64,000 bases of DNA from Deltaproteobacteria bacterium (GTDB lineage: Bacteria > Myxococcota_A > Polyangia > Fen-1088). Below are positions 7,180 through 64,000 of this stretch, in pieces. The stretch is taken from NCBI GenBank assembly GCA_033763315.1, contig JANRKS010000006.1, forward strand, positions 1-64,000. Reading direction: 5' to 3'. Made by a program: the position numbers and the translations under genes. The first letter of the stretch is position 1. Each line of letters begins with the position of its first letter. The notes beneath the pieces were generated by a model, which saw only the letters and a program-made list of their open reading frames with translations, was not told the DNA's origin and ran no database searches.

Positions 7180-8535
7180 CTAGCCCAATCCCTCGATTGG
7201 CTTTTGCGCCAAGTCCTTCCCCTCGCCGAAGCGTTCAACGGTTGGGTCAAACAGCCGCAACAACGTCAACGCCATACGCGCTGTGCTTTCGGTACTTGGC
7301 AAGCGCACGTGTACGTCTCCTCTCAGTGCCCCGCCTGCCTTGCCCACCAGCAACATCGGGAATTCCTCGGAGCTGTGCGTGCGCCCAAACGATAGTTCGC
7401 TGGTCAACAGCGTGACCGAATTGTCGAGCAGTGATCCCCCGGCTTCCGGGGTTGCGGCCAAGGCTTCCAAGTACGTTCGAAACTGGCGGAGCGTGTAGTG
7501 CACCGATTTTGTAAACTGCGGCTGATCGCCTTCTTCGAGGTGACTGATTTTGTCGTGGATATCGCCCTCGATCCCTAAAAAGCGATAGTCAACATGTGCC
7601 GCGGGCAAGCTCCACATGTATGAGATGACTCTCGTCATGTCGCAGGCCAGCGCATACGTCATCAAGGTGGTCATCGCGCCGTGTACGTCCTCGGGCACGC
7701 CTGACTTCTGTGCGACGGTGAAATCGGAGAACGAGCCATCAAGCTTCGCTGAACAGCTTTTCACCCCTTGAACGGGTGAGATCTGCTTTTCAAGTTGTTG
7801 AATCCCGTCCAAGTGTTGATCAAGGCGAAGCAGATCTTCACGCCCAAGGCGCTTTCGCAACCGCTCGATGTCACCTTTTACAAGATCGACTGTCAGCTGC
7901 CGAAAGCGCGAGCGGGCCTTTGCAGGCGATTGCCCTGCGGAACCATCGCCCGGAGCCTTGCCGAACAGACGTGTAAACACGGCGCTGGCGCTGTAGATCG
8001 GATAGTTGGGCGCGTTGATCTGGTTGTGCGAGATCGTTCGCGAGAACTCCACGCCCTTTAGATTGGGGTTCGCTTGCGACAATCCAAGTTCCAACGAGCG
8101 GAAGGGTGTGTTGCTTCCGATCTTTTTGGCGATCATTTGATCGAGGGTTTCTGAGGCAGGATCCACACGGTTGATGAGCCGCCTGCCCGTAAACAGCGCC
8201 GCCATACCTATTATGTGGCCTTCCCCTTCTTTCTCAAGCGCCCGGGCTCCGGTGACGAGGCTCATATACGGCTTGAACGCGGCAATCTCCTGAAGATGCT
8301 CGGAGAGCTGCCATTGTTGGCCAGTGCCTTGCGAGGAAGGAATCCATCGGGGCGGAACGATCCCGTTGCCAAAAAACCAAGTAACGAAACGTTTTGGTAG
8401 GGGGCCGCCTTGGGCGTAGGCCGTGCCGCTGTTGTTGAGCATGCCACCAAGGCGTGGCAGGGGCACTGCCACCAAACCACCGCCAGCCAAGATCCCCCGC
8501 AACACGGTACGCCTTGCAATGGGCTTCGACTTCAT
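7180..8535 (-). CDS. DUF1552 (HxxSHH) domain protein, copy 1
   Basis: ARRTVLRG Tat signal; FFGNG, SLELG, LDQHLDGI, ACDMTRV, HDKISH, LLDNS...SE. Confidence 0.9.
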   Translation of the reverse strand: MKSKPIARRTVLRGILAGGGLVAVPLPRLGGMLNNSGTAYAQGGPLPKRFVTWFFGNGIVPPRWIPSSQGTGQQWQLSEHLQEIAAFKPYMSLVTGARALEKEGEGHIIGMAALFTGRRLINRVDPASETLDQMIAKKIGSNTPFRSLELGLSQANPNLKGVEFSRTISHNQINAPNYPIYSASAVFTRLFGKAPGDGSAGQSPAKARSRFRQLTVDLVKGDIERLRKRLGREDLLRLDQHLDGIQQLEKQISPVQGVKSCSAKLDGSFSDFTVAQKSGVPEDVHGAMTTLMTYALACDMTRVISYMWSLPAAHVDYRFLGIEGDIHDKISHLEEGDQPQFTKSVHYTLRQFRTYLEALAATPEAGGSLLDNSVTLLTSELSFGRTHSSEEFPMLLVGKAGGALRGDVHVRLPSTESTARMALTLLRLFDPTVERFGEGKDLAQKPIEGLG

Positions 8536-10298
8536 CGCGCATCCTCCGTTCCGCGAACTTGCTGGAAGGTTCTGCTGGAGATCAGTTTGTTCAGCAACGC
8601 ACCCGTATCGTTCTCGTCGGCGTCCATCGAGGGTGCCACGAACGACGCAAACGAAGATTCCACGTCGGGGTCGAACCTTCCCAGTGCGTAACGCACAAGC
8701 TGCCGAACCAAACAGAAACGCGTCCGCGGATCATCGACCAAGAGGGCCCCCAACTCGGCGCTGTTCTTAAATGACTTGCCGTCAAGATCCCCCGAAGCAT
8801 CTACCGGCCGGCCGGCTTCTTGTTCGTGAAACGCACCGATGGCATCGAAGTTGGCGAAGGCGAAGCCGATGGGATCCGTTAGCGCATGGCAGCTTGCGCA
8901 TGCAGGATTGGTCATGTGAATTTCGAGTATCTCTCGCTGCGTGGCGCCTGGCGGAACAGCTGGAAGTTCGCTGTTCACGTTTGGTGGCGGCGGCGGAATT
9001 GTCTCGCACAAAAGCGACTCGCGCACGAACCTGCCGCGCAGGGTGGGCGACGCTTCGACGCGCTTACTCGTGACGGCCAAGAAGCCGGCCGTGCCCAACA
9101 ACCCGCTTCGCTTGGAATCGGCTGGCATAGTGACCGGCGTGAAGCCCGAGGCTGGCACGTCACCTAGCCCGTAAACCTTCGCCAGCTGGCGATCTATATG
9201 CGCCCGACGATTGTTCAAGATCGAAAGCAGGCTTCCCTCCATCGGCTTCAAAAGGCTTTCGAACAGCATCTCGATCTCGTGAGCCATGGCGCTTGGCAAT
9301 CCTGCGGTGAACATAGGAAAGTCGTTTTTGTCGCGATCGATTTGAGCAATCTTTTCAAGTTCGACCATTTCGATGCCGAACTGGCGAATCCCGTTTGACG
9401 CCTTTTCCGATGACAGCATCCGCTTCAGTTGCTGGGCAAGGCCACTGGCCGTGCTCAAGGCACCGGTGGCCGCGGCATCCAGGAGCTCATCGTCAGGTTG
9501 AGTGTTCCAAAGGAAGAACGACATTCTGGTGGCCAACTCGAAGGCTGACAACAAACGTCGCGGGCCCTCGGTGGCGCCCTGGCCCAGCTCGAATCTGTAA
9601 AGAAAGTTCGGCGACTGCAGAAGCGCGTTCATCACCAAAGCAACACCAGCGAACGGGTCGCCTTGCTCGTTCGACCATGCCTTTGCCGCATCGGCGTACA
9701 CACCGATCTCAGTGGCTTCAAGCGGGCGACGCCAGGCCCGCAAACCTACAGCCGCAATGGCTGACTTCAAGCAGGCAGCGTCATTCAAGGCAGGCTTGCA
9801 GCCCAATTGTTTCTCAACCCGTGCGCGATCACCCAACCACCGATCGACGGCATCGGAAATGGAACTTTCGTAGTTCGCTACGTCTACCGGAGCCAACGCG
9901 TTTTCTGCGGCTGCAACCGATACAAATCCCTGTTCGATTGGTTCAGGTAGAAAGTTTGCGGTGACCGGAATCTTGAGCAGATCTCCTACGGCGTTGCGAA
10001 ACTGCGCCTTAGTCAACCGCCGCATGGCCCCCTGGGCGACTGCCAATTCTGAAGCGGGAACCGGGGGATCCTCCACTGTTGCCGTTGTGGCGGGACGGCC
10101 GCCGCTGCCTGAGGGCGCCCCTGGTCCTTCGCCCTTTTCGGTTTTTTCAGTTGGCGTAATGGCCCCCGTGCACGCCAGCATGGGGGTAAAGAGCACCGCC
10201 AACGCGCCCGCTGAGATGGCCCGTTTAGCCAGGTTCCAAAGACACGAACGAAACGCCGCCTGGTACTGCGCAGGGCCCGAGCGAATCCAAGTTGTCAT
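8532..10298 (-). CDS. DUF1592/DUF1588/DUF1595/DUF1587/DUF1585 cytochrome c-like lipoprotein, copy 1
   Basis: RRLT, WRRPL, LQSPNFLYR, LATRMSFFLW..PD, SPTLRG, CASCH..DPIG; lipobox LAC; ATG 10298 chosen (ORF track starts 10328). Confidence 0.9.
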   Translation of the reverse strand: MTTWIRSGPAQYQAAFRSCLWNLAKRAISAGALAVLFTPMLACTGAITPTEKTEKGEGPGAPSGSGGRPATTATVEDPPVPASELAVAQGAMRRLTKAQFRNAVGDLLKIPVTANFLPEPIEQGFVSVAAAENALAPVDVANYESSISDAVDRWLGDRARVEKQLGCKPALNDAACLKSAIAAVGLRAWRRPLEATEIGVYADAAKAWSNEQGDPFAGVALVMNALLQSPNFLYRFELGQGATEGPRRLLSAFELATRMSFFLWNTQPDDELLDAAATGALSTASGLAQQLKRMLSSEKASNGIRQFGIEMVELEKIAQIDRDKNDFPMFTAGLPSAMAHEIEMLFESLLKPMEGSLLSILNNRRAHIDRQLAKVYGLGDVPASGFTPVTMPADSKRSGLLGTAGFLAVTSKRVEASPTLRGRFVRESLLCETIPPPPPNVNSELPAVPPGATQREILEIHMTNPACASCHALTDPIGFAFANFDAIGAFHEQEAGRPVDASGDLDGKSFKNSAELGALLVDDPRTRFCLVRQLVRYALGRFDPDVESSFASFVAPSMDADENDTGALLNKLISSRTFQQVRGTEDAR

Positions 10299-10307
10299 TG
10301 ACCCTAG

Positions 10308-10335
10308 GTCGCCTCGACCCAGCTTCAACGGCTCA
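10308..10335 (-). promoter_or_regulatory. Putative ECF promoter TGAGCC-N18-CGAC
   Basis: TGAGCCgttgaagctgggtcgaggCGAC, 9 nt before ATG 10298. Confidence 0.7.
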
Positions 10336-10372
10336 ACAGAGTTCTGCGTTGGGCGTGGAGCGGAAGCCTCCT

Positions 10373-11272
10373 TCAGGGCGCTGCGCTGATCGCAAAGTCG
10401 TCCACGTAGATCTTTCCGTCCCAGTTCACACCGGCCCCGGTCGATAAGAACATCCCCAGCTCGAACAGTGTAAACCCACTGATCTTCGAGCAGTCGAAGG
10501 TGTCCGGCAATTTAAAGGTTATCTCGCTCCATTGGCCAGGTTGCACCTGAAACAGGGCGCCGCCTACGCCTTGCCACCCGTTGAGGGTGTGTATCACAAG
10601 CTGCAACCCTGAGAGTTGATGGTCCATGGGGATCTTGACCCACACTGACATTGTTCGTCCTGCCTGAAGCCAAGGCGTTACACTTTCGCGCGTCACCACT
10701 GAGAAGAACCAATTGCGCCGCGTGTTCGACGCTACCTTGCCTTCTTCTGTGTTGATCGTTATCTCCATCGAACTTGCGCCAGTGCGCTTTTCGGTCGTGG
10801 AAAGCACGGGTGCTGACGCGGGCACGCGATCGTTGGTGGGACTTGCCGCATCCGCGCGGGGCTCCCACAGTTCATTGGTATTCTCGAAGCCTATGGCCTT
10901 CATTCCTGGCACAGTGGCGCACTGTCCTGGCGTCATGCCGCCTGTGCCGCCGGTCACCATGGTGCCACCGGTGTTCATGTTGCCACCTGTGCCACCAGTC
11001 ATCATGGTGCCGCCCATGTTTACGGTGCCACCCATGCCGCCGGTAGCAGCCGAGCCTCCTGAATTTGATCCGCCCGATCCGCCTGATGCGCTTGCACCCG
11101 AACCGCCGCTACGCGAGCCACCCGAGCCGCCCGATCTACCGCCGGAGCCTGCTGTGCCACCTGAAGCGCCTTCGCCTCCAGCGCCACCATCGCCATCACC
11201 ACCGTTCGAACCGGAACTGCATGCGACGGCCAAAACAATGCCTAGGGCAAAACCAGCGCTTAGTGTCTTCAT
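10373..11272 (-). CDS. Lipoprotein with Gly-rich tether and C-terminal CBM-like beta-sandwich
   Basis: MKTLSAG...LAVAC lipobox; long G/S/T linker; GFE...G..SME...MSVWVKIP...GQWSEI...GKIYVDDF; AAGGGG RBS before ATG 11272. Confidence 0.75.
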   Translation of the reverse strand: MKTLSAGFALGIVLAVACSSGSNGGDGDGGAGGEGASGGTAGSGGRSGGSGGSRSGGSGASASGGSGGSNSGGSAATGGMGGTVNMGGTMMTGGTGGNMNTGGTMVTGGTGGMTPGQCATVPGMKAIGFENTNELWEPRADAASPTNDRVPASAPVLSTTEKRTGASSMEITINTEEGKVASNTRRNWFFSVVTRESVTPWLQAGRTMSVWVKIPMDHQLSGLQLVIHTLNGWQGVGGALFQVQPGQWSEITFKLPDTFDCSKISGFTLFELGMFLSTGAGVNWDGKIYVDDFAISAAP

Positions 11273-11333
11273 CGAATAGACCCCTTTGTGAACCTCGTGT
11301 CGTCCGAGCGAATCCGCGTCGGGCTTGCCTTGA

Positions 11334-11361
11334 GTCGCCCCGACCGCGGCTTTACGGCTCA
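11334..11361 (-). promoter_or_regulatory. Putative ECF promoter TGAGCC-N18-CGAC
   Basis: TGAGCCgtaaagccgcggtcggggCGAC upstream of 11272. Confidence 0.7.
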
Positions 11362-11465
11362 ACAAAGCTGCGGTGGGTGTCTAGACGTGGCTGTGTCGCT
11401 CCATTCGTTGGACATAGGGGCAAGCGAACGCCGCCGATGGCGGGTACGCAAACGACGGGGAACGC

Positions 11466-11501
11466 AAAATGCGCCTGGCTACGTAAGCATAGCCAGGCGC
11501 A
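11466..11501 (-). terminator. Intrinsic terminator after the 11525 gene
   Basis: 12-bp perfect stem TGCGCCTGGCTA/TAGCCAGGCGCA followed by TTTT on the minus strand. Confidence 0.75.
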
Positions 11502-11524
11502 CCCGATCTCGGTTTAGCGAGGGT

Positions 11525-12868
11525 CTATGTCTTGATCACAAGGTCGTCGATGCAGTTGCCTTGCGGACCTCGAATCTCAACCTTGAGCAAATTATCCCAG
11601 CCGCTGAAGTTCATTTGCGTGCCGACGTTCGATGGGTTTGTAACAGTTTGAACCACCGTTGTGGTTGTGCCCTTTTTGAAGCCGCGCACCGTCACGGTGG
11701 AGTTTTCGCCCTTGTAGCCTACCTTCATCGAAACCAGCGAAAAGGGTTCGCCCGAGTTCTTGGTGATAACCATGTGCTCGTTCCAGCCCGCTTGGCACAA
11801 ACGCCGGCCGCCGCTTACGTCTTGAATGTCAAGCGTGCCAGTCGAGTTCATGAAAACCGTGTTCTTAAACTCTAGATTGTTGCTGGTGGTCCATACATCT
11901 GCGCGGCTGGCAGCAACAATGCGGATAGACTCTGCGTTGAAGTCGTAGGTCCTCGTGACCCAGTCTTGTGCAACGGCGCCGTTGTAGTTGCGATTCACGT
12001 AGGTGGTCATCACGTTAGGCCACAGCGCTCTCCAGGGGGTGTAGGCGGTATCTGATTTGCCGCAATCCTTATAGTCGAAATGCTCACCGTCGGGCATCAC
12101 CTTCGGCATGCAGAGCCGGCTCGCAATCCCGGTGTAGAGCGTGCCATCGTCTGGGCGATATCCGCTCCACGCCGTGTAAGGATTTGCGCTGCTGGCGCCC
12201 AATCGCCCAGGTATGTTGGCCTTAAATCCATCTCCCTTCACGTAATACGCCTCGGGCGGATTTGACGCCAATACGTTGCCGAAGAAGACACCTTCCATGA
12301 TGTGTGCATCGCTGCCCCCTTCGTGGGGCATGCTCATGCCCACAGAAGGCATCCGATCGGGGTCGGCGTTGATGAAAATGGGCACGTGGTTGCCGGTGCT
12401 GTTCATGTGGGCCATGACGCATGCACTGATCTTTTGCTGGCAACTGGCATCGCAGCTTCCCTCTTTCCAGCCGGTGCCGACACCCATGCGGCCGTAGTAG
12501 CGGTGCCACGCGCCGGTGTTGTCTTGTTTGTCGAGGTAATCTCCGCTGGCCAACGCACACTTGGCCAAGTATTCGGCTGTGGCGCGCCCACCGTTCGAGG
12601 TCATTAGGCCGTTCGAGGTCATCAACCCGTTCGAGGTCATCAACCCGTTGATGGTCGAAAGGCCGTTAGAAGTCATCAGGCCGTTGGAAGCCACAAGGCC
12701 GTTGATGGCAGACAACCCGTTGATGGCCGAAAGGCCATTCTCAGAGGTCAGCCCTTGAGACACGGGATCATCCTGCAGCAACGAAGCCCCGTCCTGCCCG
12801 GGCGCACCGCAACCTACAGCGCCGCCCACCAACAAAACACCTAGCGAATTCCAGAACACCTTTGTCAT
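11525..12868 (-). CDS. Myxobacterial-type secreted lipoprotein with NGLxxx hexapeptide repeats and Cys-containing domain
   Basis: AVGC lipobox; about 9 NGL(S/M/V)xx units; YLAKCAL...G.MGVGTGW...CDASCQQKISACVMAHMN. Confidence 0.8.
   Translation of the reverse strand: MTKVFWNSLGVLLVGGAVGCGAPGQDGASLLQDDPVSQGLTSENGLSAINGLSAINGLVASNGLMTSNGLSTINGLMTSNGLMTSNGLMTSNGGRATAEYLAKCALASGDYLDKQDNTGAWHRYYGRMGVGTGWKEGSCDASCQQKISACVMAHMNSTGNHVPIFINADPDRMPSVGMSMPHEGGSDAHIMEGVFFGNVLASNPPEAYYVKGDGFKANIPGRLGASSANPYTAWSGYRPDDGTLYTGIASRLCMPKVMPDGEHFDYKDCGKSDTAYTPWRALWPNVMTTYVNRNYNGAVAQDWVTRTYDFNAESIRIVAASRADVWTTSNNLEFKNTVFMNSTGTLDIQDVSGGRRLCQAGWNEHMVITKNSGEPFSLVSMKVGYKGENSTVTVRGFKKGTTTTVVQTVTNPSNVGTQMNFSGWDNLLKVEIRGPQGNCIDDLVIKT
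12591..12754 (-). repeat. 18-bp coding tandem repeat (NGLMTS/NGLSAI)
   Basis: Repeated (c/g)ccgttcgaggtcatcaa-type units. Confidence 0.85.
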
Positions 12869-12871
12869 CTC

Positions 12872-12962
12872 GTTTCCCTTCGGAAGCCCGGCCAGCTCTG
12901 GGAGCCCCGCTTGGCTTTGCGTCGCGCGGTCGCCCGCGGTTTGCCGTTTCGTTTTCGGGAGA
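12872..12962 (-). ncRNA. c-di-GMP-I (GEMM-I) riboswitch
   Basis: Minus strand CGAAACGGCAAACCGCGG-GCGA-CCGCGCGACGCAAAGCCAAGCGGGGCTCCCAGAGCTGGCCGGGCTTCCGAAGGGA. Has GGCAAACC, a GNRA loop, GACGCAAA and GCCGGG..CCG in the expected order, in the 5' UTR of 12868. Confidence 0.8.
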
Positions 12963-13180
12963 ATCCCCTTGAGGGCGACAATTGCAGCTTCTGTGCCGCA
13001 GTTAAGCCGTGAACTGGATGACGTTTTCTATGGACATTTAGCCAGTGACACGCCGTCGGGTGTTGCGTGCCAGACAACAGGTGTTGTTTGGCGCGCGAAC
13101 AACTTCCTACGAATCATGTTGCAAAGAGGAACGTGGTTCGCCGCAGCATTCAAAACATGAAAGCGATTTAAGCGTTTTCA

Positions 13181-13208
13181 TGAGCCGTTTGATCCATGCC
13201 ACGACGAC
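13181..13208 (+). promoter_or_regulatory. Putative ECF promoter TGAGCC-N18-CGAC
   Basis: TGAGCCgtttgatccatgccacgaCGAC upstream of 13293. Confidence 0.7.
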
Positions 13209-13292
13209 ACCACGATAGGACTGAAATGTTTTTGTAGCGAGGGAAGCGCGCATGCGTTCGACCTTCAGAGGCCAGCGCGGAGGATCCTGATC

Positions 13293-14960: not shown

Positions 14961-14961
14961 C

Positions 14962-17661: not shown

Positions 17662-17669
17662 ACACCGAA

Positions 17670-52573: not shown

Positions 52574-52574
52574 G

Positions 52575-56711: not shown

Positions 56712-57965
56712 TCAGTCGTAGACACCACCGGGTGGTTCGGTAGAAAGGTTTGACTCAACCAGAATGCGCGAGAAGGTGGTTCCCTCTTCCCGATACGCAA
56801 ACTCAAGCGTGTGGCTACCTGCGGAAAGTGTAGGCTGAACGACGGCATTCGATGCGCCGGAATCGCGAACGTCGGCCCAGCCGTAGCTGCCCATGCCCAC
56901 GATGTTGTCCCACTTGATCCAAGTGCCGTGATCGATCCGCACCCAGAATGAATCGGATGATGTGGACGGCGCGGTGACGAGCACCCAGAACTTCACCTTC
57001 GTGGTGGCACCCAGTTGGAAGTCAAAGCGAGCGTATCCAGTATCTGGGGCGGCGTTCAGGCTGTTGTAGCCTGGGAACACCTTGGCCTCTTCATCGCTCC
57101 AATCGAAGAACATCGGCGACGAGTAAGAGGCGCCGTAGCCGTCTCGAATGACGAGGGGGTAGTTATTGGACGCGAAGCCCGAGCACCACACCTGCGAGGG
57201 CGTTCCGGTGTAACCAGAGCGCACCGGCACCACGCGGAAACAGCCCGTGGACTGCGCGTTGTAGACCAGGTTCGAATTGTTTTGCACGGAGGAGAAAGCT
57301 CCAGAAGCCTGCTGCTTCTCAATCTGGTAGCTGGTGGCCCCTGCCACAGCCGTCCAGGTGAAGCGAATCCGGTTGCTGCCGCTCACGTGGCTGAGCACCG
57401 GGGCGGCCAGCGGCGAGGAGAACGCCGTGGGCGAATAGTTCGGGTTGTCCGTGAACACCAGCGCGTCTAGCTGCACGTTGTTCTCACGATAAGCCACATC
57501 AAAGTCGTGGGCGCCTGCGGTCAGGTTGAACGTGACAGCAGATTTATCACCGTTGACGCTATCGTGAACGAAATCCCAGTGCCAAGCCGAGCCAAGGGCG
57601 ATGTCCATCCAGCGCACCCAGGTGCCGCCATCGAAGCGAACCCACAGCGAATCCGACGTGGTATCCGGCGCCTTCACGCGACCATACACGCCATAGACGC
57701 CGGCGTTGGTCAGCTCGATGTGGTATCGCGCGATGCCGGTCGCGGGCGGCGCGTTCAAGCTGTTGAGCCCGGAGGGCACTTTGACGAGAGAGCCGTCGGA
57801 CGCCAAGACCGCGTCCTCAATTCGCAAAGGGGACGTGATGCTGTTGCCACCTTCGCTGCTCGCGGCTCGCACCGACTCCGCTTCGACCCAAAGAGTGTCC
57901 GCGCTTGCGGATAGTGAAGGCAGAAGTGCTGCCACTGCCAGGGACAAGATTGTCTTCGTACGCAT
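56712..57965 (-). CDS. Secreted protein with two CBM-like sandwiches flanking an FN3-like domain
   Basis: Sec signal ASA; internal duplication NSLNAP..TG.ARY...APDTTSDSLWVR.D.GTW..W...L.AG.H....AYRE; FTWTAVAGATSYQI. Confidence 0.8.
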   Translation of the reverse strand: MRTKTILSLAVAALLPSLSASADTLWVEAESVRAASSEGGNSITSPLRIEDAVLASDGSLVKVPSGLNSLNAPPATGIARYHIELTNAGVYGVYGRVKAPDTTSDSLWVRFDGGTWVRWMDIALGSAWHWDFVHDSVNGDKSAVTFNLTAGAHDFDVAYRENNVQLDALVFTDNPNYSPTAFSSPLAAPVLSHVSGSNRIRFTWTAVAGATSYQIEKQQASGAFSSVQNNSNLVYNAQSTGCFRVVPVRSGYTGTPSQVWCSGFASNNYPLVIRDGYGASYSSPMFFDWSDEEAKVFPGYNSLNAAPDTGYARFDFQLGATTKVKFWVLVTAPSTSSDSFWVRIDHGTWIKWDNIVGMGSYGWADVRDSGASNAVVQPTLSAGSHTLEFAYREEGTTFSRILVESNLSTEPPGGVYD

Positions 57966-58144: not shown

Positions 58145-59260
58145 CTACTGGCCGCCGTTGCTTTGCCAAAATGTGTCGTAACATTGTTTCTGTTCCGCAC
58201 ACGGCAAAGTTGCGCAGGCCTCGAACTGTGGAAGCTTTTCATCCAAAAACAGACCGCTCAAGTAACAGACGTCGTCGCTGCTCGCGACATTGGGGTCGGC
58301 CTCTCCGCAAGCCTTTGCGCCCTGTTCGCACACCAAGGCTCCACCTCTTAGAATCATCGTACAAACAAGCAGCTCATCGTTATAGCCGCCGGCTGAGCAC
58401 GCTTGAAGTGCGGCCGTATCCTTGTACGAGGGGGGGCTGGCCTCAAGGGCGGCGATTGATAGGCAGGCTTCGGCAAGATTTGACGAATCAATTTCGCCGC
58501 CCTTGTTTGTTATAAAGTTGCACAGTTCTGTTTTCTTTGTGTTCGCAACGCAGGCGTCGAAAATAGGCTCCACGCGGGGATTCAAAGCGCCTTTAGCGCG
58601 AATCGGCTCGAATACCTCTCGAACCTTTTTGCAAGCGTTGCTCGCCGCCAAGCGCTGCGCCTCTGTGGTGGTTCCCACACAACTTGCAACAAGGCCGGGA
58701 AAGTAGTCACATCCCACTTGTGCGGCAGCTGTGTCGGCACCACCATCAACCACAGCTTGATCCTCGGCGTAGGCAAAGCCCCAGACACCTGTCTCAGTCA
58801 CGTCTGCCTCCCAGTCTTCGTCGTTAGGTGGCACAGCGCCTACAAGCACAGCCGCACGTCGCACGGCAAAGCCTTCTGCCTTTCCTTGATTTCCCACTAA
58901 GACGTACCCTCGCATGGGCGCCGCAGGCGCAACGGCTTGTCGCAGGCGCGCGGCGCCAGTGAAAACCAGCGCTTCGCCCGTGATCTCGACGGCCACATCA
59001 CCGGCGGGCGTGCGCCCACGCTTGGCAAGCTGGCCCACCACCCTCACTCGCATGCGCGCAGGTTGCGACACAGACGCGGCCGGCACCGTCACAACGGCTC
59101 GACCACGACCGACGCCCACAGTGACGGAGACATCCTGCCTGCCGACTTCAACGATGGTTTCAGCGAACACCACGGCGTATGGCGCTGCATTCTTTTCATC
59201 CGAGCAGCCGGCGAAGGCTACAAAGGTTAACAAGGCAATGATTTGTCGTTTTCGATTCAT
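58145..59260 (-). CDS. Lipoprotein with ZU5-like N-domain and Cys-rich C-domain
   Basis: FAGC lipobox; AVVTVPAASV...VEIT...F.GAARL; many Cys; GAGGA RBS. Confidence 0.7.
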   Translation of the reverse strand: MNRKRQIIALLTFVAFAGCSDEKNAAPYAVVFAETIVEVGRQDVSVTVGVGRGRAVVTVPAASVSQPARMRVRVVGQLAKRGRTPAGDVAVEITGEALVFTGAARLRQAVAPAAPMRGYVLVGNQGKAEGFAVRRAAVLVGAVPPNDEDWEADVTETGVWGFAYAEDQAVVDGGADTAAAQVGCDYFPGLVASCVGTTTEAQRLAASNACKKVREVFEPIRAKGALNPRVEPIFDACVANTKKTELCNFITNKGGEIDSSNLAEACLSIAALEASPPSYKDTAALQACSAGGYNDELLVCTMILRGGALVCEQGAKACGEADPNVASSDDVCYLSGLFLDEKLPQFEACATLPCAEQKQCYDTFWQSNGGQ

Positions 59261-59498
59261 GACATCCTCAGAGTTGGGCGCAATCGCGATGACGCACCTG
59301 TTGAATCGCCTTCGCGGAGCTTCGAGAAGGCTTAACTCAACAGACACGTGGGCGAGGCCGAACCTTCCGTCCGAACCCCGCTGGCCCGCTTTACACCTGA
59401 CGATCGGCCAAGCTCGTTGCGCCAAAACTTCGCCTCGAAGGGCTAGGAATTGACCCAGGGAAGTCTTTGGCAGGATTGGTCCGCGCGTTAGCTGCGCC

Positions 59499-60902
59499 CT
59501 AAGGGATCTTCGGGCTCAATGCCGGACCGTCGCCGGTGGGCAGCTGCATCACCTTATCGATAACGAATCGATCGATCTTCGCCCCAGCCTCGCGCCGCTT
59601 AAGAGTGAAGGTGTTGTTGCCAGAGGTCGCAGCCGAGATGGTGCCCAGGTACACCCAAGCGAACGTCGCGCTGATCTGCAGATTCCCGCGCGTGTTCGTT
59701 CCGTCGTTGAGCCGAAAGAAAAGCGAATCTGCGGCGTTGGTCTCAGAGCGACGTCGGGCGTACACGTAGTAGGTCCCGGTGGTGGCAAGAGAGAGGGCGT
59801 AGCTCAACTCGGACGAGGCGACCTCACCGGGGTCCTTAATGGCGCCTTCAGGTACCACCACATAGCCTGCGCCAAGGAAGCCTGCGTCCGTGGTTTGCAC
59901 CGCCCACGCTATATCGCCATTTGCGTTGGCGCTGGTGAAGTCTTCGGCCTCGAAGACCACCTGCCCGTTTTGTTCGACGAAAGCGCCACCTGTAGCGCCA
60001 ACCTTGACATTGACGACAGCCGATTTGGTTGTTTGTGGAAGGCTGTCGTAAGCCACGGCCGAAAGTGCGCGTCCGCCCAACATGAGGTTCACGTTCGCCA
60101 AAGAAAAGGGCGCCGCCAGAACCTCGCCTAGCGAAGTCTCGCCATCGAAGAACACCACCTTCGAGACGATGTCTGCTGCGGAAGCCGCCGTGGCTTGCAA
60201 AGTTACGGGCATGCCGGCAGGCAAACTTGCATTCGCTGAGGGCTGCGTAATCGATACCGTGGGCGGCGCTACGCTTGTGATGGAAACGGGAGAAGAGTTG
60301 GCCGTTTTGTTGTCGCCCGTTGAGGCGCGCGCAACAAGCGTTCGCATGCCGGCAGGCAACATTGGTACTGACACCGTGAAGGGTGGTGTGGTGGACATGC
60401 CAAGGACGGTTTCACCTTCGAGAATCTCTACCCTCGCGATCTGTGCTGGTGACGCCACAGTGGCCGAAACGACGAACTCCACCGCCCGGGACTCTGCAAC
60501 CTTGCTTCCGCTCATGGGTTGCGTGATTGAGACGCTGGGCGTGGATTGCGTTGCGCCGCCTGTGCCTACAGAGCCGCCTGTGCCTACAGAGCCGCCTGTG
60601 CCTATCGAGCCGCCTGTGCCTATCGAGCCGCCTGTGCCTATCGAGCCGCCTGTGCCGCTGCCACCTTTACCGCCGACCCCGCTTGCACCCCCTGATCCGT
60701 TTTTTCCTCCAGAGCCGCCCTTACCCGCGGAGCCACCCGACGCGCTGTCGCCGCCTCCGCCGGAACCTGCGTTGTTGCCATCGTCGCCGTTGTCTCGGGA
60801 TCCAGAGGAGCTGCAGGCGAAAAGTAACGCGCCTGCGAGTGCCACGTTAAACGGAAGGCCAAGGAACGAGCGAGAGGAGCGAGTGACAAGTTTTATCGGC
60901 AT
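59499..60902 (-). CDS. Lipoprotein: Gly-rich tether, two Ig-like (Big_7-type) domains, CBM-like sandwich
   Basis: LFAC lipobox; two P(S/T)VSITQP...V.....G...LG....PF repeats; FVEQNGQVVFEAEDF...RREAGAKIDRF. Confidence 0.83.
   Translation of the reverse strand: MPIKLVTRSSRSFLGLPFNVALAGALLFACSSSGSRDNGDDGNNAGSGGGGDSASGGSAGKGGSGGKNGSGGASGVGGKGGSGTGGSIGTGGSIGTGGSIGTGGSVGTGGSVGTGGATQSTPSVSITQPMSGSKVAESRAVEFVVSATVASPAQIARVEILEGETVLGMSTTPPFTVSVPMLPAGMRTLVARASTGDNKTANSSPVSITSVAPPTVSITQPSANASLPAGMPVTLQATAASAADIVSKVVFFDGETSLGEVLAAPFSLANVNLMLGGRALSAVAYDSLPQTTKSAVVNVKVGATGGAFVEQNGQVVFEAEDFTSANANGDIAWAVQTTDAGFLGAGYVVVPEGAIKDPGEVASSELSYALSLATTGTYYVYARRRSETNAADSLFFRLNDGTNTRGNLQISATFAWVYLGTISAATSGNNTFTLKRREAGAKIDRFVIDKVMQLPTGDGPALSPKIP
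60555..60656 (-). repeat. Near-perfect 18-bp tandem repeat, five units plus a partial (GGS[I/V]GT)
   Basis: gccgcctgtgcctacaga x2, gccgcctgtgcctatcga x3, plus a partial unit. Confidence 0.9.
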
Positions 60903-61068: not shown

Positions 61069-62487
61069 TTATCCCCTTAGGCGCTGGTGCACCATCGACG
61101 TTGTGTCGTACTTCGCCGTGCCGAAACTGTCAGTGGGCACGTCCATCGCGCGCGCCATGGATCCCAGCAACCCGTTGTGCGCCGTGCCCTTGAGATCCAG
61201 CCAACGCCCCGTCTTGTAGACGCCCAGGCTTCCCGCGAGAATGAATGGTACGCGCACAAGCGAGTGCCGCGGGCCTTCGCCCATGTGGTTCGCGAATAGC
61301 AAAAGGCTCGAGTCGAACAGGCGTGCGCCCGATGCACTTTTGGTGTCTTTGAAGCGTCGGATGAGGTCGGCGAAGACTTCAACGAACCACTTGTCCGCCA
61401 CCGCCTTGCGGCTGCCGCCTTCGTGCGCGATCTCGTGATGGCTGACTGAGCCCGTGCCGAAAGCGAGATCACCGGCGGACGACTGCTCCTTAAAGGCGTC
61501 TCCCAAGAACGCCAAGGAGACGTTCGATCCGCTCGCGTTAGGCAACATGAAGGTCACCACACGGGTCAGGTCGCATTTTAATGCCGTGATTGCGAGATCC
61601 ATCTGAAGCGACGTCAACTCGCGAAGCTTCGCCTTGTCCTTTGGATCGGTCCCATCGGCGGGTGCCTTTGCTTGGCAGCTTCCTGTGTCAACAGGCGGGC
61701 CAACGGCGTTAAGCTCCTCCTCCATCTTTCGAATCGACTGAAGGTGCTCCTCTAGCTTCAGTTTGTCCTCCGGGCCTAGCTTTCCGCCAAGCCTGGTGAG
61801 GTTACGGCCCACGACATCTAAGACGCTCTTGCGTTGGGTCCGCAACTTGTCCACCGCAGCTACAGGCAGGGATTGACCTTGAAACAGCCGTTTAAACACA
61901 GAGTAGGGGCTCTCATCCGGTTTGTTTCCGTCGGGCCACGTCTTGTTTGTGGTGGGGCCATTGAACGATATGAAGGCTTCAGTGGGATCGCTTCCAAAGA
62001 ACGATCCAGTGGTCTGTACACCGAGCTCCAAAGATTTGAACGCGGTTGGTGAACGAGCCTGCAACGCTTTCGCCACGTACTGATCAACGGAAATGGCGTT
62101 GCCCTTGATTCGGTCCTGCTGGTTCTCGCCACCGGTGTCGGTTCGCGCCGACAGCGCACCGGTCAGCAGATGCGGCAGACTTTGGTGCCCGGCAATGTCT
62201 CCGTGACCCAGCGGATCCTCTCGGGCAACCGTCAAGTCAAGTGACATGAAAATCGCGTCGGCTTGATGCGCGGCCAGAGGCTGGGTGCATTCAGGCAACG
62301 TAAAATTGGTTTCGGTACCTTTGGGGAAGAACTTGTCCGGAACCACGCCGTTGGTCCACTGCAATATCATCAGGCGCTTTGGTTCAGCCACAGCCCCCTG
62401 TGCATGGTCCTCCGTTAGCAAAGGCAAAAACGCAGGCGAGACTCCAAGCCCGCGCAGCAGAGTTCGGCGAGAAAACCTGTCGCTCAT
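61069..62487 (-). CDS. DUF1552 domain protein, copy 6
   Basis: FSRRTLLRG Tat signal; WTNGV, SLELG, SVLDVV, KLEEHLQSIR, CDLTRV, HHEIAH; AGGAG RBS. Confidence 0.9.
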   Translation of the reverse strand: MSDRFSRRTLLRGLGVSPAFLPLLTEDHAQGAVAEPKRLMILQWTNGVVPDKFFPKGTETNFTLPECTQPLAAHQADAIFMSLDLTVAREDPLGHGDIAGHQSLPHLLTGALSARTDTGGENQQDRIKGNAISVDQYVAKALQARSPTAFKSLELGVQTTGSFFGSDPTEAFISFNGPTTNKTWPDGNKPDESPYSVFKRLFQGQSLPVAAVDKLRTQRKSVLDVVGRNLTRLGGKLGPEDKLKLEEHLQSIRKMEEELNAVGPPVDTGSCQAKAPADGTDPKDKAKLRELTSLQMDLAITALKCDLTRVVTFMLPNASGSNVSLAFLGDAFKEQSSAGDLAFGTGSVSHHEIAHEGGSRKAVADKWFVEVFADLIRRFKDTKSASGARLFDSSLLLFANHMGEGPRHSLVRVPFILAGSLGVYKTGRWLDLKGTAHNGLLGSMARAMDVPTDSFGTAKYDTTSMVHQRLRG

Positions 62488-62488
62488 G

Positions 62489-64000
62489 TCAGAGATCTCC
62501 TGGGGTAGCGGTACGGTAAGCAAACGCGCGGGATCGTGCCAACGCGACAAACAGCTCTCGCACGTCCCCTGACGCTTCGAGGAAGCTGCCAAGCGACGAG
62601 CCAAGGGAGTTAAGATCAACCGCGCTCTCGAGGCGGTGTTGCATGAACCTGAAGGCTTGCCGAACGAGGCAATCCTTAACTTCAGAGCTTTCCCCCAACA
62701 ATCGACTTAGCTCGACCCCGTTCGCGAAGGCGTGATCGATTCCGTCCAGCTGAACCGTGCCCGATGCGTCCACAGCTTGTCCGTTGTCAGTGTCGCGGCG
62801 TTTACCAATGCCGTCGTAGTGCTCGAAGGCAAAGCCGAGCGGGTCCAGTTGCTCGTGGCAGCCCCGGCAACCCGGGTTGGCTCCGTGTTCGGCGAACCGC
62901 TGCCGGGTCGTGACGCCAGGTCGGGGCGGGGCGACATCAGGAATCTCGGCAGGAGGAACGCCCACGTCGCGGCAGAGGACCCTGGTGAAGATCACTTTGC
63001 CGCGCTTGACCGGGTGAGAGCCATTCGTCGCGCCTGACGCTGAGAGAAACGCCAACCGCGTCAGGATGCCCGCGCGCTGCCCCTCCATTAAATCAATAGC
63101 CTGCGCTGCCGAGCCGGCAGACACTCCATAAAGCCCCGCGGTCGTTTCATCGATCCACGCCTTTCGGGTGGATAGCAGCGTAGATAACTTTCCGTCGCCA
63201 GCGACAACCACGTTAGCCACGAGCGCTCGGGTTTCTGCCGCCATCGCCTTCGCCGTGTCTGCGCTGTACGTGGGGTAAATCTCGGGGCTCTTCGACGTGT
63301 CGAACAAGCGGTTCACGAGCAGCCATTCCTCAATGAACGCCGCCAGGCGCGGCTTCGCACGTTCATCCTTCAGCATTCGCCTCGCTTGCCGCTCGCGCTC
63401 TTGAACGTCGCCGAGCTTGGCATCGTCTGCCGCCTTCATGAGCTCGTCGTCGGGGGCGCTACCCCAAAGGAAGTAGGATAGGCGGCTGGCCAAGGTGTAG
63501 TCGTCGAGCCGCACCTGCTCCTTTGCTTCCCGGCGTCCGTCCTGCCAAAGGTAGAGGAACTGGGGCGATTGCAAAAGGGCGCTCAAGATGAGGCGTTCGG
63601 CCTCAACATGTCCCAGTGACAGATCTTTGCGCGCTTGCTCGTAAAGACCTCCATAGTCGGCAAGCTCCACCGGCGTCAACGGACGACGAAACAAGCGCTT
63701 CCCGGCTTTCTCCACGAAGGCGCGCCCGCAATTCGTTTCTGCCTGTGCGTTGCCCGCTTGGCAGGGATAGAGCCGAGCCAGGGTTTCCAAACCCTTTGCT
63801 GCCAAAGCTTCCGCAGCTTCGGCGAACGCCCGGGTCTGCGTAACATCTGCGGGACCTGCACCAACGAAGCCAAAGGACGTGCTGACGTTGCCCGGAAACA
63901 TGCGAGCGGGGCGTGTTTCGTCTCCCAACATGTCTTTGACCGTGGCGTCGTATTCATCGTTGGTGAGACGACGCAGAGCTAGAGGCCCCGTCGCGCTCGG
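62489..64000 (-). CDS. DUF1592/DUF1588-type cytochrome c-like protein, copy 6 (5' partial)
   Basis: Frame is open to the window edge (PSATGPLALRRLTNDEY); RLFRRPL, LLQSPQFLY, LASRLSYFLWGSAPDDEL, EHGANPGCRGCH. Confidence 0.9.
   Translation of the reverse strand, partial: PSATGPLALRRLTNDEYDATVKDMLGDETRPARMFPGNVSTSFGFVGAGPADVTQTRAFAEAAEALAAKGLETLARLYPCQAGNAQAETNCGRAFVEKAGKRLFRRPLTPVELADYGGLYEQARKDLSLGHVEAERLILSALLQSPQFLYLWQDGRREAKEQVRLDDYTLASRLSYFLWGSAPDDELMKAADDAKLGDVQERERQARRMLKDERAKPRLAAFIEEWLLVNRLFDTSKSPEIYPTYSADTAKAMAAETRALVANVVVAGDGKLSTLLSTRKAWIDETTAGLYGVSAGSAAQAIDLMEGQRAGILTRLAFLSASGATNGSHPVKRGKVIFTRVLCRDVGVPPAEIPDVAPPRPGVTTRQRFAEHGANPGCRGCHEQLDPLGFAFEHYDGIGKRRDTDNGQAVDASGTVQLDGIDHAFANGVELSRLLGESSEVKDCLVRQAFRFMQHRLESAVDLNSLGSSLGSFLEASGDVRELFVALARSRAFAYRTATPGDL

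Follow-up and report, generated by a model that had tools for sequence, protein, structure and literature searches.

The window, which is the whole 64-kb stretch of DNA analysed, carries six gene pairs, each encoding a DUF1592-type protein with PSD3/PSD5/PSD4/PSCyt3/PSD2 domains (A) and a DUF1552 protein (B), numbered 1 to 6 along the sequence (Table 1). A Pfam scan of 45 chosen open reading frames of at least 150 aa recovered all six where the first-pass annotation had placed them. The six B proteins scored 66.3-197.8 bits for DUF1552/HXXSHH (PF07586), for which the cut-off is 30, and every A, encoded on the same strand immediately upstream of its B, contained PSD5, PSD4 (DUF1592), and PSCyt3 (DUF1588), with PSD3 above the cut-off in four of six and PSD2 matched in five but above the cut-off in four (24.8 bits versus 25.8 in 6A). 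Pairs 1 to 6 showed overlaps of 4 and ~20 nt followed by gaps of 42, 41, 8, and ~1 nt, in agreement with the earlier description of genes that overlap or lie at most about 45 nt apart. A adjoined B in all six window pairs and in 77/80 related Polyangia loci, where it lay directly upstream. The six anciently diverged pairs lie inside 57 kb and their A and B identity matrices were correlated (Mantel r=0.72, reached by 1/720 permutations). On sequence comparison, the cassettes are ancient paralogues that stem from a single widespread two-gene module and diverged as units.

Table 1. Features of the window, with strand and supporting evidence.
Position	Strand	Feature	Evidence
1735-4788	+	Sister-type haem protein PSCyt1-PSCyt2(DUF1549)-PSD1(DUF1553)	Pfam E 1.9e-17, 2.9e-83, 1.3e-95; CxxCH at residues 58, 347
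4795-6309	+	DUF1501 protein with RR motifs, 6 nt downstream of sister haem protein	DUF1501 E 2.3e-142; weak Phosphodiest E 6.4e-4
6325-7179	+	AraC-family regulator, converges on pair 1	Pfam HTH_18, AraC_binding
7180-8535	-	1B DUF1552	Pfam E 4.3e-58; Tat signal ARRTVLRG
8532-10298 (ORF to 10328)	-	1A haem lipoprotein, PSD3-PSD5-PSD4-PSCyt3-PSD2	Pfam; CASCH; atypical lipobox MLAC
10373-11365	-	Lipoprotein, 46% Gly tether, 44 nt upstream of 1A	No Pfam family
11525-12868	-	Lipoprotein with SNGLMT-type repeats, first gene of pair-1 string	Tandem repeat 12591-12740; no Pfam family
13293-14960	+	2A haem lipoprotein	Pfam; CRGCH; lipobox FAAC
14941-16344 (alternative start 14815)	+	2B DUF1552	Pfam E 1.5e-46; Tat signal DRRTFLKMG
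16381-17688	-	SASA esterase lipoprotein, Gly tether, converges on pair 2	PF03629 E 6.2e-38; repeats 17156-17380
23938-24867	-	Lipoprotein, 17 nt downstream of 3B	GH115_C-like (CBM-type) E 3.2e-4, below cut-off; lipobox ..NVLAC
24885-26303	-	3B DUF1552	Pfam E 4.5e-34; Tat signal SRRTALRAG
26346-28025 (ORF to 28121)	-	3A haem lipoprotein	Pfam; CGTCH; lipobox LASC
28072-29373	-	Lipoprotein upstream of 3A	52% Gly tether, GTGG repeats
29370-30761	-	Gly-tethered lipoprotein	SGL/SMP-30 beta-propeller E 0.0014, 18.8 bits vs cut-off 26.3
30800-32674	-	Lipoprotein, one CxxCH (CVHCH), head of pair-3 string	No Pfam/NCBIfam family
33612-34862	-	Putative anti-sigma, weakly FecR-like, beside pair-3 ECF sigma	FecR E 0.029
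34811-35488	-	ECF sigma factor upstream of pair-3 string	Pfam
36843-37670	-	TPR protein beside second ECF sigma	Pfam, NCBIfam
37667-38404	-	Second ECF sigma factor, divergent from pair-4/5 string	Pfam, NCBIfam
38505-39860	+	Laminin_G_3 lipoprotein, Gly tether, first gene of pair-4/5 string	Pfam E 7.8e-17
39873-42002	+	Pectate-lyase-like beta-helix lipoprotein, Pect-lyase_RHGA_epim (PF12708)	Pfam E 2.9e-24
42061-43827	+	4A haem lipoprotein	Pfam; CAACH; lipobox AQGC
43869-45290	+	4B DUF1552, most diverged copy	Pfam E 4.7e-18, 66.3 bits; Tat signal SRRTMLRG
45397-46632	+	Lipoprotein between pairs 4 and 5, 42% Gly tether	No family
46923-48653 (ORF from 46881)	+	5A haem lipoprotein, copy modelled and used in complex	Pfam; CASCH; lipobox FSSC
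48662-50077	+	5B DUF1552, copy used in complex	Pfam E 1e-47; Tat signal ERRTFLRG
56712-57965	-	Secreted protein, last gene of pair-6 string	GH115_C-like E 4.1e-5, just below cut-off
58145-59425	-	Lipoprotein without family	Lipobox; Pfam
59499-60902	-	Big_7 + GH115_C-like lipoprotein, 166 nt downstream of 6B	Pfam; 48% Gly tether; repeat 60555-60656
61069-62487 (alternative start 62619)	-	6B DUF1552	Pfam E 1.8e-57; Tat signal SRRTLLRG
62489->64000	-	6A haem protein, N-terminus lost at window end	Pfam; CRGCH

The motif scan found one CxxCH in each of the six A proteins and none in the six B proteins. Its Cys, Cys, and His were invariant in 65/65 A sequences, a single copy was present in 119/120 A homologues of similar length, and two copies occurred in 117/120 longer homologues with an extra PSCyt1 or Cytochrome_CBB3 domain, which is what an electron-transfer chain would predict. 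A lipobox-like motif was identified in 98/120 homologues of similar length versus 15/120 long ones. All five complete A proteins in the window displayed the lipobox reported earlier, four of them according to a PROSITE-like pattern that 1A (..TPMLAC) fails solely by the Pro at -4, while a looser rule admits it. A search of the PDB with the 5A model (pLDDT 90.4, pTM 0.87) gave 0 matches at E<=0.001, such that a solved structural relative was not found. The match to SusD (3ck8, E 2.4, TM 0.15) was not significant. The whole-chain fold search likewise found no cytochrome c relative, so that the prediction of haem binding comes from the invariant motif alone. A should be a Sec-exported, lipid-anchored, and mostly helical protein with one predicted c-type haem. 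Measured haem, metal, or activity, or any functional study, was not found in the literature for members of the family.

The twin-arginine motif [ST/D/E/A]RRT.L[RK] was conserved in 6/6 window B proteins, as the first-pass annotation had noted, and an RR motif in 134/150 homologues. Residues H107, H327, H332, and H387 were invariant in 98/98 sequences, C261 and C298 were kept in 97/98, and several Asp were nearly invariant in the alignment. The 1B model (pLDDT 90.2, pTM 0.91) adopts a sulfatase/alkaline-phosphatase-superfamily fold; at E<=0.001 the B model had 61 matches in the PDB (TM-scores 0.31-0.42, identity 9-13%, probabilities 0.94-1.00), and those listed were sulfatases or other alkaline-phosphatase-superfamily proteins. 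B therefore shares its overall fold with the formylglycine-dependent sulfatases of family S1 and other hydrolases of the superfamily. Unlike the S1 enzymes, it has an obligatory haem-protein partner and no [CS]xPxR motif (0/6 window copies and no column-consistent occurrence across the 98 sequences), and the Pfam scan matched none of the DUF1552 B proteins to Sulfatase or Phosphodiest. Judging by the secondary structure of the model, G-N-G seems to stand in place of the strand-1 Asp pair typical of the superfamily, and an invariant His would occupy the putative nucleophile position. According to the model, B is a Tat-exported protein of alkaline-phosphatase/sulfatase fold that lacks the sulfatase nucleophile motif and keeps four invariant His. 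The earlier view of the pair, in which a CxxCH protein held by a lipid anchor is joined by a Tat-exported protein, was supported, with the conserved His cluster added for B.

Mutual binding of the partners, which the first-pass annotation treated as a pair, was predicted for 5A with haem and 5B (ipSAE 0.86, 0.86, and 0.85 versus 0.00 for the best of three controls). In the calibration of the tool the same mark was reached by 58/80 solved complexes and 2/110 mismatched pairs, counts that apply roughly because the run took custom alignments and included a riding haem. Contacts agreed by at least 82% between runs with partner pLDDT of at least 81, and the result does not reproduce a known structure, as A has no PDB match at E<=0.001 and hence no like complex is solved. 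The predicted interface takes in 5B H259, H353, H407, D252, and R255. Its conservation was no higher than that of the remainder (A 0.496 vs 0.533; B 0.439 vs 0.438), the CxxCH of 5A was absent from the confidently contacting residues, and an A-B fusion was not found among 8000 longer candidates, which is weak evidence. The prediction for A and B is thus a 1:1 heterodimer with conserved B His at the interface.

Lipobox-like signals were found by rule in 19/42 ORFs and by eye in a twentieth (23938-24867), and eight ORFs had at least 25% Gly within 80 residues after the Cys. Several pairs lie in co-oriented strings with such tethered lipoproteins of carbohydrate-type folds, as described before, and several of the neighbours previously named were recovered, including the pectate_lyase_3-like and Ig-CBM proteins. 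For the proposed DUF2341-LamG lipoprotein, Laminin_G_3 was found and DUF2341 was not at E<=0.001, and the SMP-30 assignment stayed sub-threshold both at 29370-30761 and at 17829-18854 (SMP-30/SGL E 2.7e-4, NHL also matched). Two further resemblances serve as leads only: a beta-sandwich (CBM4_9-like) for 10373-11365 (TM 0.43-0.49 in Atlas structure rows) and a polysaccharide-lyase-like protein for 28072-29373 (Atlas features 0.92 to a Myxococcota cluster with PF21340 in 70% of members). Pair 2 is an isolated two-gene unit. The esterase reported to converge on it was confirmed as a member of the SASA family, which we take to be equivalent to CE6. No TonB-dependent receptor or ABC-transporter family was detected among the 45 ORFs, as already stated from the sequence.

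The first-pass annotation overlooked a seventh pair (PSCyt1/2-PSD1 plus DUF1501, 1735-6309). This module has the same logic as the six pairs, in that a gene for a large CxxCH protein precedes one for a protein with a Tat signal and a match to the alkaline-phosphatase superfamily, and its Pfam families differ on both sides. DUF1552 and DUF1501 were linked by a pair of collinear but weak profile matches, with E values of 0.0086 and 0.02 that fall short of significance, around the invariant His and around ‘lld..TSE’ at the C-terminus. The module has been tied to intracellular membranes (Kamneva et al., 2012; PMC3542564), an idea that is inapplicable here.

Among related loci, orthologous Sorangium pairs sit among GH10/GH62/GH43/GH16/GH44 genes, and a GH/CBM/CE4 gene was at most three genes away in 34/78. 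Glycoside hydrolases were enriched 2-3-fold next to the pairs relative to more distant genes, a trend that was not significant without Sorangium redundancy (19/267 vs 7/208 distinct families, p=0.10; 15/234 vs 4/142 outside Sorangium, p=0.15) and whose baseline was the far flanks of the related loci. The neighbours were diverse (267 clusters for 366 genes, mostly without carbohydrate relation); the largest clusters were ordinary GH families and regulators, and no neighbour family was conserved across loci.

Neither the adjacency of A and B nor a possible connection with carbohydrates is new to the literature: He et al. (2017; PMC5615132) describe PSCyt3 genes that adjoin a family of unknown genes and propose a role in carbohydrate metabolism. 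The PSCyt domains were named from Rhodopirellula baltica, and the Planctomycetota/Verrucomicrobiota PSCyt3 plus DUF1552 pair has the same Pfam domains and order, a single CxxCH in PSCyt3, and a neighbour of one family. It differs from the present pairs in that the host here belongs to Myxococcota (Polyangia-like) and the A proteins are short single-haem lipoproteins. By comparison of descriptions, the haem module of A seems to be the one that CAZy calls “X132” in Cellvibrio Cbp2D. X132 lies at the C-terminus, contains one CxxCH, and follows a DUF1587 (PSD3) domain; it is carried by Cellvibrio japonicus Cbp2D and Teredinibacter turnerae TERTU_2913/3803, for which no characterised homologue is described (PMC8981238, PMC10916295, PMC12542752), and this fits the lack of PDB relatives of A. 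X132 is linked to polysaccharide breakdown, with Cbp2D important for growth on insoluble cellulose (PMC12542752), and X132 proteins, unlike A, are long, secreted, and multi-domain, with CBM2, X158, X183 cytochromes, and FN3.

The best explanation, held with about even confidence, is that A and B constitute a haem-coupled metalloenzyme acting on paralogue-specific, polysaccharide-derived substrates. The complex would lie in the periplasm, tethered to the membrane through the lipid of A, and electrons would pass between a metal site of B and the haem of A. Each paralogue may take a different substrate and act together with the tethered lipoproteins, for binding or cleavage, whose genes adjoin its own, with expression perhaps partly under ECF sigma control. 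Periplasmic dehydrogenases such as sulfite dehydrogenase SorAB, in which the catalytic subunit is exported by Tat and the other subunit is a cytochrome c, are alike in encoding a Tat-exported cofactor enzyme alongside a c-type cytochrome partner, although their folds and cofactors are unrelated to those of the A-B pair. It is rather unlikely that B is instead a sulfate, phosphate, or phosphonate esterase, for example of decorated sugars, with A as anchor or regulator and a structural or redox-sensing haem. The B fold does match sulfatases, phosphonate monoester hydrolases, LtaS, and EptC; a weak sequence match spans the sulfatase ‘lldNtlvvytSD..geH’ region, and position 380 is D or E in 86/98 sequences, followed by H387. 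In addition, one long A homologue (P0293) carries a genuine Sulfatase domain as a fusion, the neighbours in related loci include a sulfatase gene and an FGE-like gene (L026, L006), and He et al. (2017; PMC5615132) note sulfatase genes near PSCyt genes. However, the nucleophile motif and the Pfam matches are missing, the strand-1 Asp pair is apparently altered, and an obligatory invariant-CxxCH partner, often with further cytochrome domains, would be unexpected for a plain hydrolase.

Similarly improbable is a device for redox chemistry or scavenging in the periplasm at large, e.g., one that oxidises or reduces small organic or inorganic compounds, whose neighbours merely reflect a very high density of secreted-lipoprotein genes in this stretch of a Polyangia genome, as could be argued from the majority of non-carbohydrate neighbour clusters, the non-significant GH difference outside Sorangium, the GH genes in the far flanks, the huge size of the family (7407 clusters at 50% identity), which suggests many substrates, and the inverse correlation of PSCyt and GH coding density across the genomes of He et al. 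(2017; PMC5615132; r=-0.62). Published CBM fusions of PSCyt (PMC5615132, PMC3542564) and X132 proteins (PMC8981238, PMC10916295), the CBM2 label that one table row of a multi-omics study on lignocellulose gives to a DUF1592 protein of Cellvibrio (PMC6004670), and the cbp2D mutant phenotype on cellulose (PMC12542752) speak against it, as do the tight co-oriented window strings with LamG, pectate-lyase-like, and CBM-like lipoproteins. The pair as the SusC/SusD-like core of PUL-like loci, as proposed in the first-pass annotation and taken here to mean a surface device for glycan capture or uptake, is very unlikely. Like Bacteroidota PULs, the loci combine a recurring pair with tethered carbohydrate-domain lipoproteins, two ECF sigma modules adjoining the strings (one with a putative anti-sigma), and GH genes near many related pairs. 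In contrast, A has no significant match to SusD or any solved protein, B is an enzyme-type fold and not a barrel, exported by Tat to the periplasm without its own anchor, and the GH enrichment is not robust. Neither the window nor 475 neighbour-cluster representatives from related loci yielded a TonB-dependent transporter, so the analogy is positional only, and the A-B pair is neither a transporter nor a SusC/D equivalent. Maturation of the neighbouring lipoproteins after export, e.g., by oxidative residue modification, for which sulfatase-maturing enzymes are a loose analogy, is extremely improbable; it would suit pairs co-oriented with one to three tethered family-less lipoproteins, but the neighbours show no family conserved across loci, and a co-oriented lipoprotein is missing from pair 2 and from many of the related loci.

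The interpretation offered in the first-pass annotation was partly supported. New here are the fold assignment of B without C/SxPxR, the A protein without a solved relative, the predicted heterodimer, and the co-divergence of six pairs. The pair probably works, as modelled, as one membrane-tethered complex among sugar-processing genes.

The Pfam scan of the 45 open reading frames of at least 150 aa in the window (G+C approximately 59%) confirmed the six DUF1592-DUF1552 pairs that the first-pass annotation had called, at the coordinates it gave, in each of which a PSCyt3-type haem lipoprotein (A; copies 1A-6A) is followed by a DUF1552 protein (B; copies 1B-6B). The DUF1552/HXXSHH family (PF07586) was matched by all six B copies with 66.3-197.8 bits against a gathering cut-off of 30. 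For A, typed with PF07626, PF07637, PF07631, PF07627, and PF07624, the PSD5, PSD4 (DUF1592), and PSCyt3 (DUF1588) domains scored above gathering in that order in 6/6 copies, PSD3 in four (4A below the cut-off and 2A with no match), and PSD2 likewise in four (6A at 24.8 bits against a cut-off of 25.8 and 4A with no match). Each A lay directly upstream of its B on the same strand, the two genes overlapping by as much as 20 nt or lying at most 42 nt apart, in line with the earlier reading of overlap or at most about 45 nt. The single CxxCH per A and the twin-arginine signal per B also held: exactly one CxxCH was present in 6/6 A copies, inside PSCyt3, with zero in 6/6 B copies, and a S/T-R-R-x-F-L-K-like motif before a hydrophobic stretch, the putative Tat signal, was identified in 6/6 B copies and 134/150 B homologues. 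The lipobox claimed for five A copies stood in standard form for four of the five complete ones, which fitted a PROSITE-like pattern; 1A is atypical (Pro at -4) and passed a looser rule only, and 6A was outside the count, its N-terminus being cut by the window end. A, B, and most neighbors received no name in the NCBIfam search. The six pairs add new members to a known, uncharacterized module and do not amount to a new kind of system.

Features of the window with their coordinates (strand as noted)
Feature	Coordinates	Remark
DUF4143 fragment	118-705 (-)	C-terminal part of an AAA-type ATPase family
PSCyt1-PSCyt2-PSD1 protein	1735-4788	two CxxCH (Pfam)
DUF1501 protein	4795-6309	6 nt after the PSCyt1-PSCyt2-PSD1 gene, co-oriented (Pfam)
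Sister-type pair	1735-6309	
PSCyt1-PSCyt2-PSD1 / DUF1501 / AraC stretch	1735-7179	
Pair 1	7180-10298	
Tether repeat array	10936-11032	
Lipoprotein with SNGLMT-like repeats	11525-12868 (-)	no family
SNGLMT-like repeats	12591-12740	18-nt period
Pair 2	13293-16344	
Tether repeat array	17156-17398	
Pair 3	24885-28025	
Tether repeat array	28829-29133	
Lipoprotein with CVHCH	30800-32674 (-)	624 aa
ECF sigma gene	33612-35488 (with putative anti-sigma gene)	
ECF sigma gene	36843-38404 (with putative anti-sigma gene)	
Tether repeat array	38679-38743	
Pair 4	42061-45290	
Pair 5	46923-50077	
Histidine kinases	50148-54377 (-)	hybrid kinase with receiver domains; PAS kinase
RGL11/FG-GAP lipoprotein	54557-56590	
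Tether repeat array	60555-60656	97% matches
Pair 6	61069->64000	

A seventh, sister-type pair just upstream of the region described in the first-pass annotation had been missed, in which the PSCyt1/2-PSD1 and DUF1501 architectures of that module were found on adjacent, co-oriented genes with an AraC regulator gene next after the DUF1501 gene. Profile comparison tied DUF1552 and DUF1501 by two weak, collinear matches at the H107-helix and strand-1 regions, and the A profile against the PSCyt1/2-PSD1 protein (hhalign) gave a weak C-terminal match only (E 0.044). The lipoprotein heading the pair-3 string (i.e., the run of co-oriented genes around the pair) carries a single CxxCH (CVHCH at residue 108), was assigned to no Pfam or NCBIfam family, and is a candidate eighth haem protein of the window. 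Large proteins with PKD and RoxA-like or MauG-like multi-haem cytochrome regions occur near pairs in several Polyangiaceae loci from the genome scan (L011:12582-16655, L030:2210-4696, and L033:1-2306).

As judged from predicted export signals, the stretch as a whole forms an island of lipoproteins destined for export: the lipobox rule was passed by 19/42 window open reading frames with one further seen by eye, and eight of the lipoproteins had at least 25% Gly over the 80 residues after the Cys. Co-oriented strings with lipoproteins were found for pairs 1, 3, 4+5, and 6 (gaps from -4 to 248 nt), bearing out the earlier description of pairs 1, 3, 4, and 6, and pair 2 stands alone and converges on an esterase, as had been read, that Pfam places in the SASA family. 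In the DNA, the Gly-rich tethers correspond to tandem repeats with a unit of 9 or 18 nt and up to 16.7 copies, and these arrays could differ in length among strains. In the lipoprotein gene at 11525-12868, the N-terminal region instead consists of 6-residue SNGLMT-like repeats that are not a Gly tether. Carbohydrate-type families identified by Pfam in the window were the SASA esterase, a pectate-lyase-like beta-helix, Laminin_G_3, and RGL11/FG-GAP, with weak GH115_C-like matches in three proteins; no clear glycoside hydrolase (GH) was found among the 45 open reading frames, relaxed Pfam searches on the neighbors gave sub-threshold hints only, and atlas look-ups gave leads only. The pair-3 and pair-4/5 strings are each headed by an ECF sigma gene; the two genes stand back to back, and a putative anti-sigma gene (weak FecR-like or TPR protein) follows either of them. 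The genome-scan loci L001, L024, L025, L063, and L064 likewise have ECF sigma genes next to a pair. The histidine kinases separate pair 5 from the RGL11/FG-GAP lipoprotein, and a full-length relative of the DUF4143 protein adjoins a pair in L077.

Related loci were collected with a nine-sequence alignment and one genome per species, a scan that returned only Polyangia relatives of pair 1, such that Cellvibrio and other phyla are not among its 80 loci; nearly all were Polyangia or other Myxococcota, including 24 Sorangium, with a few labeled Proteobacteria, Pseudomonadota, or "bacterium" and a top identity to 1B of 44-45%. The B family is far larger, numbering 7407 clusters at 50% identity under a limit of E<=0.001 and 562 under the stricter E<=1e-30, and the names of long A homologues (at least 1009 aa) came from Planctomycetota, Verrucomicrobiota, and Bryobacteraceae. 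The closest homologue of 5A was 94% identical and the next 58%, its named matches being Myxococcales, Myxococcota, or Sandaracinaceae metagenome-assembled genomes. A was directly upstream of the central B in 77/80 loci; L023 has the order A-B-B, L017 has no A directly upstream, and L077 begins too near B to judge. The A gene was split into two open reading frames upstream of B in L040 (8255-9983) and L058 (8230-9971), as either a frameshifted pseudogene or an assembly error. No A-B fusions or other long B forms were found among 8000 candidates, which is weak evidence.

Clustering of pairs recurs, since a further A or B was counted by eye on the maps within 10 kb in about 17/80 loci. The six window copies are old, with 25-31% identity among the A copies and 20-31% among the B copies, and closer relatives exist elsewhere for 1B (47.5%), 2B (34%), 5B (54%), and 6B (36%). 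The A and B identity matrices of the six pairs correlated with r=0.72, a value reached by only 1/720 label permutations, so that each pair must have been duplicated, and have then diverged, as one unit. Two Sorangium loci, L012 and L015 (~8176-15913), carry in succession a 1-like pair, a GDSL esterase, and a 2-like pair, an arrangement that mirrors pair 1, pair 2, and the SASA esterase of the window; the top matches of 2B are these second pairs, and the pair-1/pair-2 neighborhood is therefore itself conserved.

Structure prediction provided a fold for B. The 1B model (98-row alignment; pLDDT 90.2, pTM 0.91) had 61 PDB matches at E<=0.001 with TM 0.31-0.42 and 9-13% identity, and all matches listed were sulfatases or other alkaline-phosphatase-superfamily proteins, including steroid, carrageenan, mucin, and choline sulfatases, phosphonate monoester hydrolases, LtaS, and EptC. 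As modeled, B has the core alpha/beta fold of the alkaline-phosphatase superfamily. Sequence alone does not place it, since the B profile against PDB sequences picked up the Tat signal (PvdN, E 0.048), a C-terminal stretch of a sulfatase weakly (E 1.1), and nothing else. B shares its fold with the formylglycine sulfatases (S1) but differs from them in lacking their [CS]xPxR nucleophile motif, which was found in 0/6 B copies (nor in the window DUF1501 protein) and only as 14 scattered, non-aligned occurrences in 98 B homologues, and in having no match to Pfam Sulfatase (PF00884) at E<=0.001; a sulfatase identity for B was ruled out on these grounds. A different set of residues is conserved: H107, H327, H332, and H387 are invariant (98/98), C261 and C298 occur in 97/98, and D132, H241, R302, and D371 in 89-92/98. 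Both His of the His-x-x-(x)-[STA]-His motif (PF07586) are present in 6/6 B copies and 98/98 sequences, with copies 3 and 4 reading HxxxH without Ser/Thr. As the B profile could not be usefully aligned by hhalign with a true sulfatase encoded in L026 (E 0.19), equivalences of the active site were drawn from secondary structure and not superposition, by which H107 would lie at the start of the helix bearing the superfamily nucleophile and the strand-1 Asp pair of the superfamily would be replaced by G-N-G.

The signs of a c-type cytochrome in A, a putative assignment from sequence, are the CxxCH motif and an export signal only. The motif was invariant in 65/65 aligned homologues; one CxxCH was present in 119/120 A homologues of similar length compared with two in 117/120 long homologues, the latter via an added PSCyt1 or Cytochrome_CBB3 domain, a pattern that fits an A haem that would pass electrons. 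The 5A model (65-row alignment; pLDDT 90.4, pTM 0.87) was mostly helical with a ~60-residue disordered tether. Its whole-chain Foldseek search against the PDB listed 0/466 matches at E<=0.001 (best E 0.025, TM 0.09), a query that may miss a small haem sub-domain and so let a cytochrome c relation escape, and the A profile against PDB sequences gave nothing meaningful.

A complex of 5A (residues 62-576, with a riding haem) and 5B (residues 47-471) was predicted with ipSAE 0.86, 0.86, and 0.85 vs. 0.00 for the best of three controls. In the tool calibration, this mark was reached by 58/80 solved complexes and 2/110 mismatched pairs, counts that apply only approximately here, since the job took custom alignments and a ligand. 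The runs agreed in at least 82% of contacts with partner pLDDT of at least 81, and memory is an unlikely cause of the high score since A has no PDB relative and no like complex has been solved. The prediction supports, short of showing, that 5A and 5B bind each other. On the B side, the modeled interface comprises a long helical hairpin (225-266, with D252, R255, and H259), 344-353, and 407, taking in the invariant H353 and H407 of 5B, and on the A side, it would take in the conserved S-P-x-F-L-Y stretch (residues 223-229). Two points count against this reading: the predicted interface was no more conserved than the rest, and the CxxCH was not among the confident contacts of the model.

The first-pass annotation had cast the pairs as the core of a polysaccharide utilization locus, in the position filled by SusC/SusD. 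Its observation that the window has no TonB-dependent or ABC transporter agreed with Pfam (0/45 open reading frames), and no TonB-dependent transporter was found in 475 neighbor-cluster representatives of the 80 related loci. In contrast to a SusC/SusD-type locus, both the SusC-like transporter and the SusD-like lipoprotein are absent from the window by Pfam, and the A model was unlike SusD (E 2.4-3.0, TM 0.15), so that the analogy should be dropped except as a remark on gene position. For the proposed check on carbohydrate-active neighbors, genes within three positions on each side of the central pair in the 80 loci (near; 366 genes, 267 clusters) were compared with genes at least five positions from any A or B (far; 240 genes, 208 clusters). 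GH, CBM, or CE4 families occurred in 19/267 near clusters, with a further seven clusters of esterases, and GH clusters in 7/208 far ones (Fisher p 0.10). By genes, the counts were 51/366 and 12/240 (p 3e-4, inflated by related Sorangium genomes) and, outside Sorangium, 15/234 and 4/142 (p 0.15). A near gene of these GH, CBM, or CE4 families was present in 34 of the 78 loci with called neighbors, i.e., 19/24 in Sorangium, where the pair is flanked by GH16/GH43-CBM6 genes on one side and GH62/GH10 genes on the other, and 15/54 in the others. What stood of the expected enrichment is a 2-3-fold trend of GH genes beside the pairs, measured against far genes and not genome background; significance was lost on de-replication and outside Sorangium, and the enrichment is not firm.

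The first identification of these domains in Rhodopirellula baltica reportedly dates from 2004. The relevant passages of He et al. (2017; PMC5615132) likewise give R. baltica as the source of this first identification, place the products by prediction in the periplasm or cytoplasm, and relate PSCyt density inversely to GH density, and those of Kamneva et al. (2012; PMC3542564) describe the DUF1501 plus PSCyt1/2/PSD1 module and its Tat signals. X132 is described as a C-terminal module of Cbp2D and TERTU_2913/3803 that follows a DUF1587 domain and has one CxxCH, and in these descriptions is said to have no characterized homologue (Branch et al., 2021, PMC8981238; 2024 Teredinibacter paper, PMC10916295). 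Cbp2D matters for growth on insoluble cellulose, which its loss slows, according to the relevant part of a 2025 report (PMC12542752), and a table row elsewhere labels a Cellvibrio DUF1592 protein as CBM2 (PMC6004670). From the domain descriptions and this DUF1592-named protein, we infer that the X132 module belongs to the A family. No functional study of DUF1592, DUF1552, DUF1585/1587/1588/1595, PSCyt, HXXSHH, or DUF1501/1549/1553 was found in the searchable literature.

The likeliest reading of the A-B pair is a metalloenzyme of two subunits, coupled to haem, tethered to the membrane, and built on a sulfatase-type scaffold, whose periplasmic substrates would probably derive from glycans. A bolder version, which we consider unlikely, takes the pair as the first representative of a novel class of haem-coupled metalloenzymes in the periplasm on the sulfatase/alkaline-phosphatase scaffold, with a His-cluster metal site at the interface doing oxidative and not hydrolytic chemistry on polysaccharide fragments or decorations. 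A hydrolytic activity of A-B is kept alive by single cases in which a long A homologue also carries, as a fusion, a true Sulfatase domain (P0293) or amidohydrolase domains (P0292).

For domains that number in the thousands, the window sharpens and does not answer the question of function: the haem protein has a partner with an enzyme fold and a new His-rich site, this site lies at the interface of their predicted complex, and each pair evolves as one unit. In Sorangium, a genus with cultured strains and complete genomes, relatives are found among hemicellulase genes, and the literature ties the haem module to Cellvibrio Cbp2D. Together, these points make a long-open question directly testable by ordinary biochemistry and genetics. 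If the oxidative haem-coupled class were true, the thousands of paralogues in Polyangia, Planctomycetota, Verrucomicrobiota, and Cellvibrionaceae (there with X132 as the haem module) would provide glycan breakdown with a redox branch running alongside the glycoside hydrolases, with each paralogue matched to its substrate by the neighboring tethered lipoproteins.
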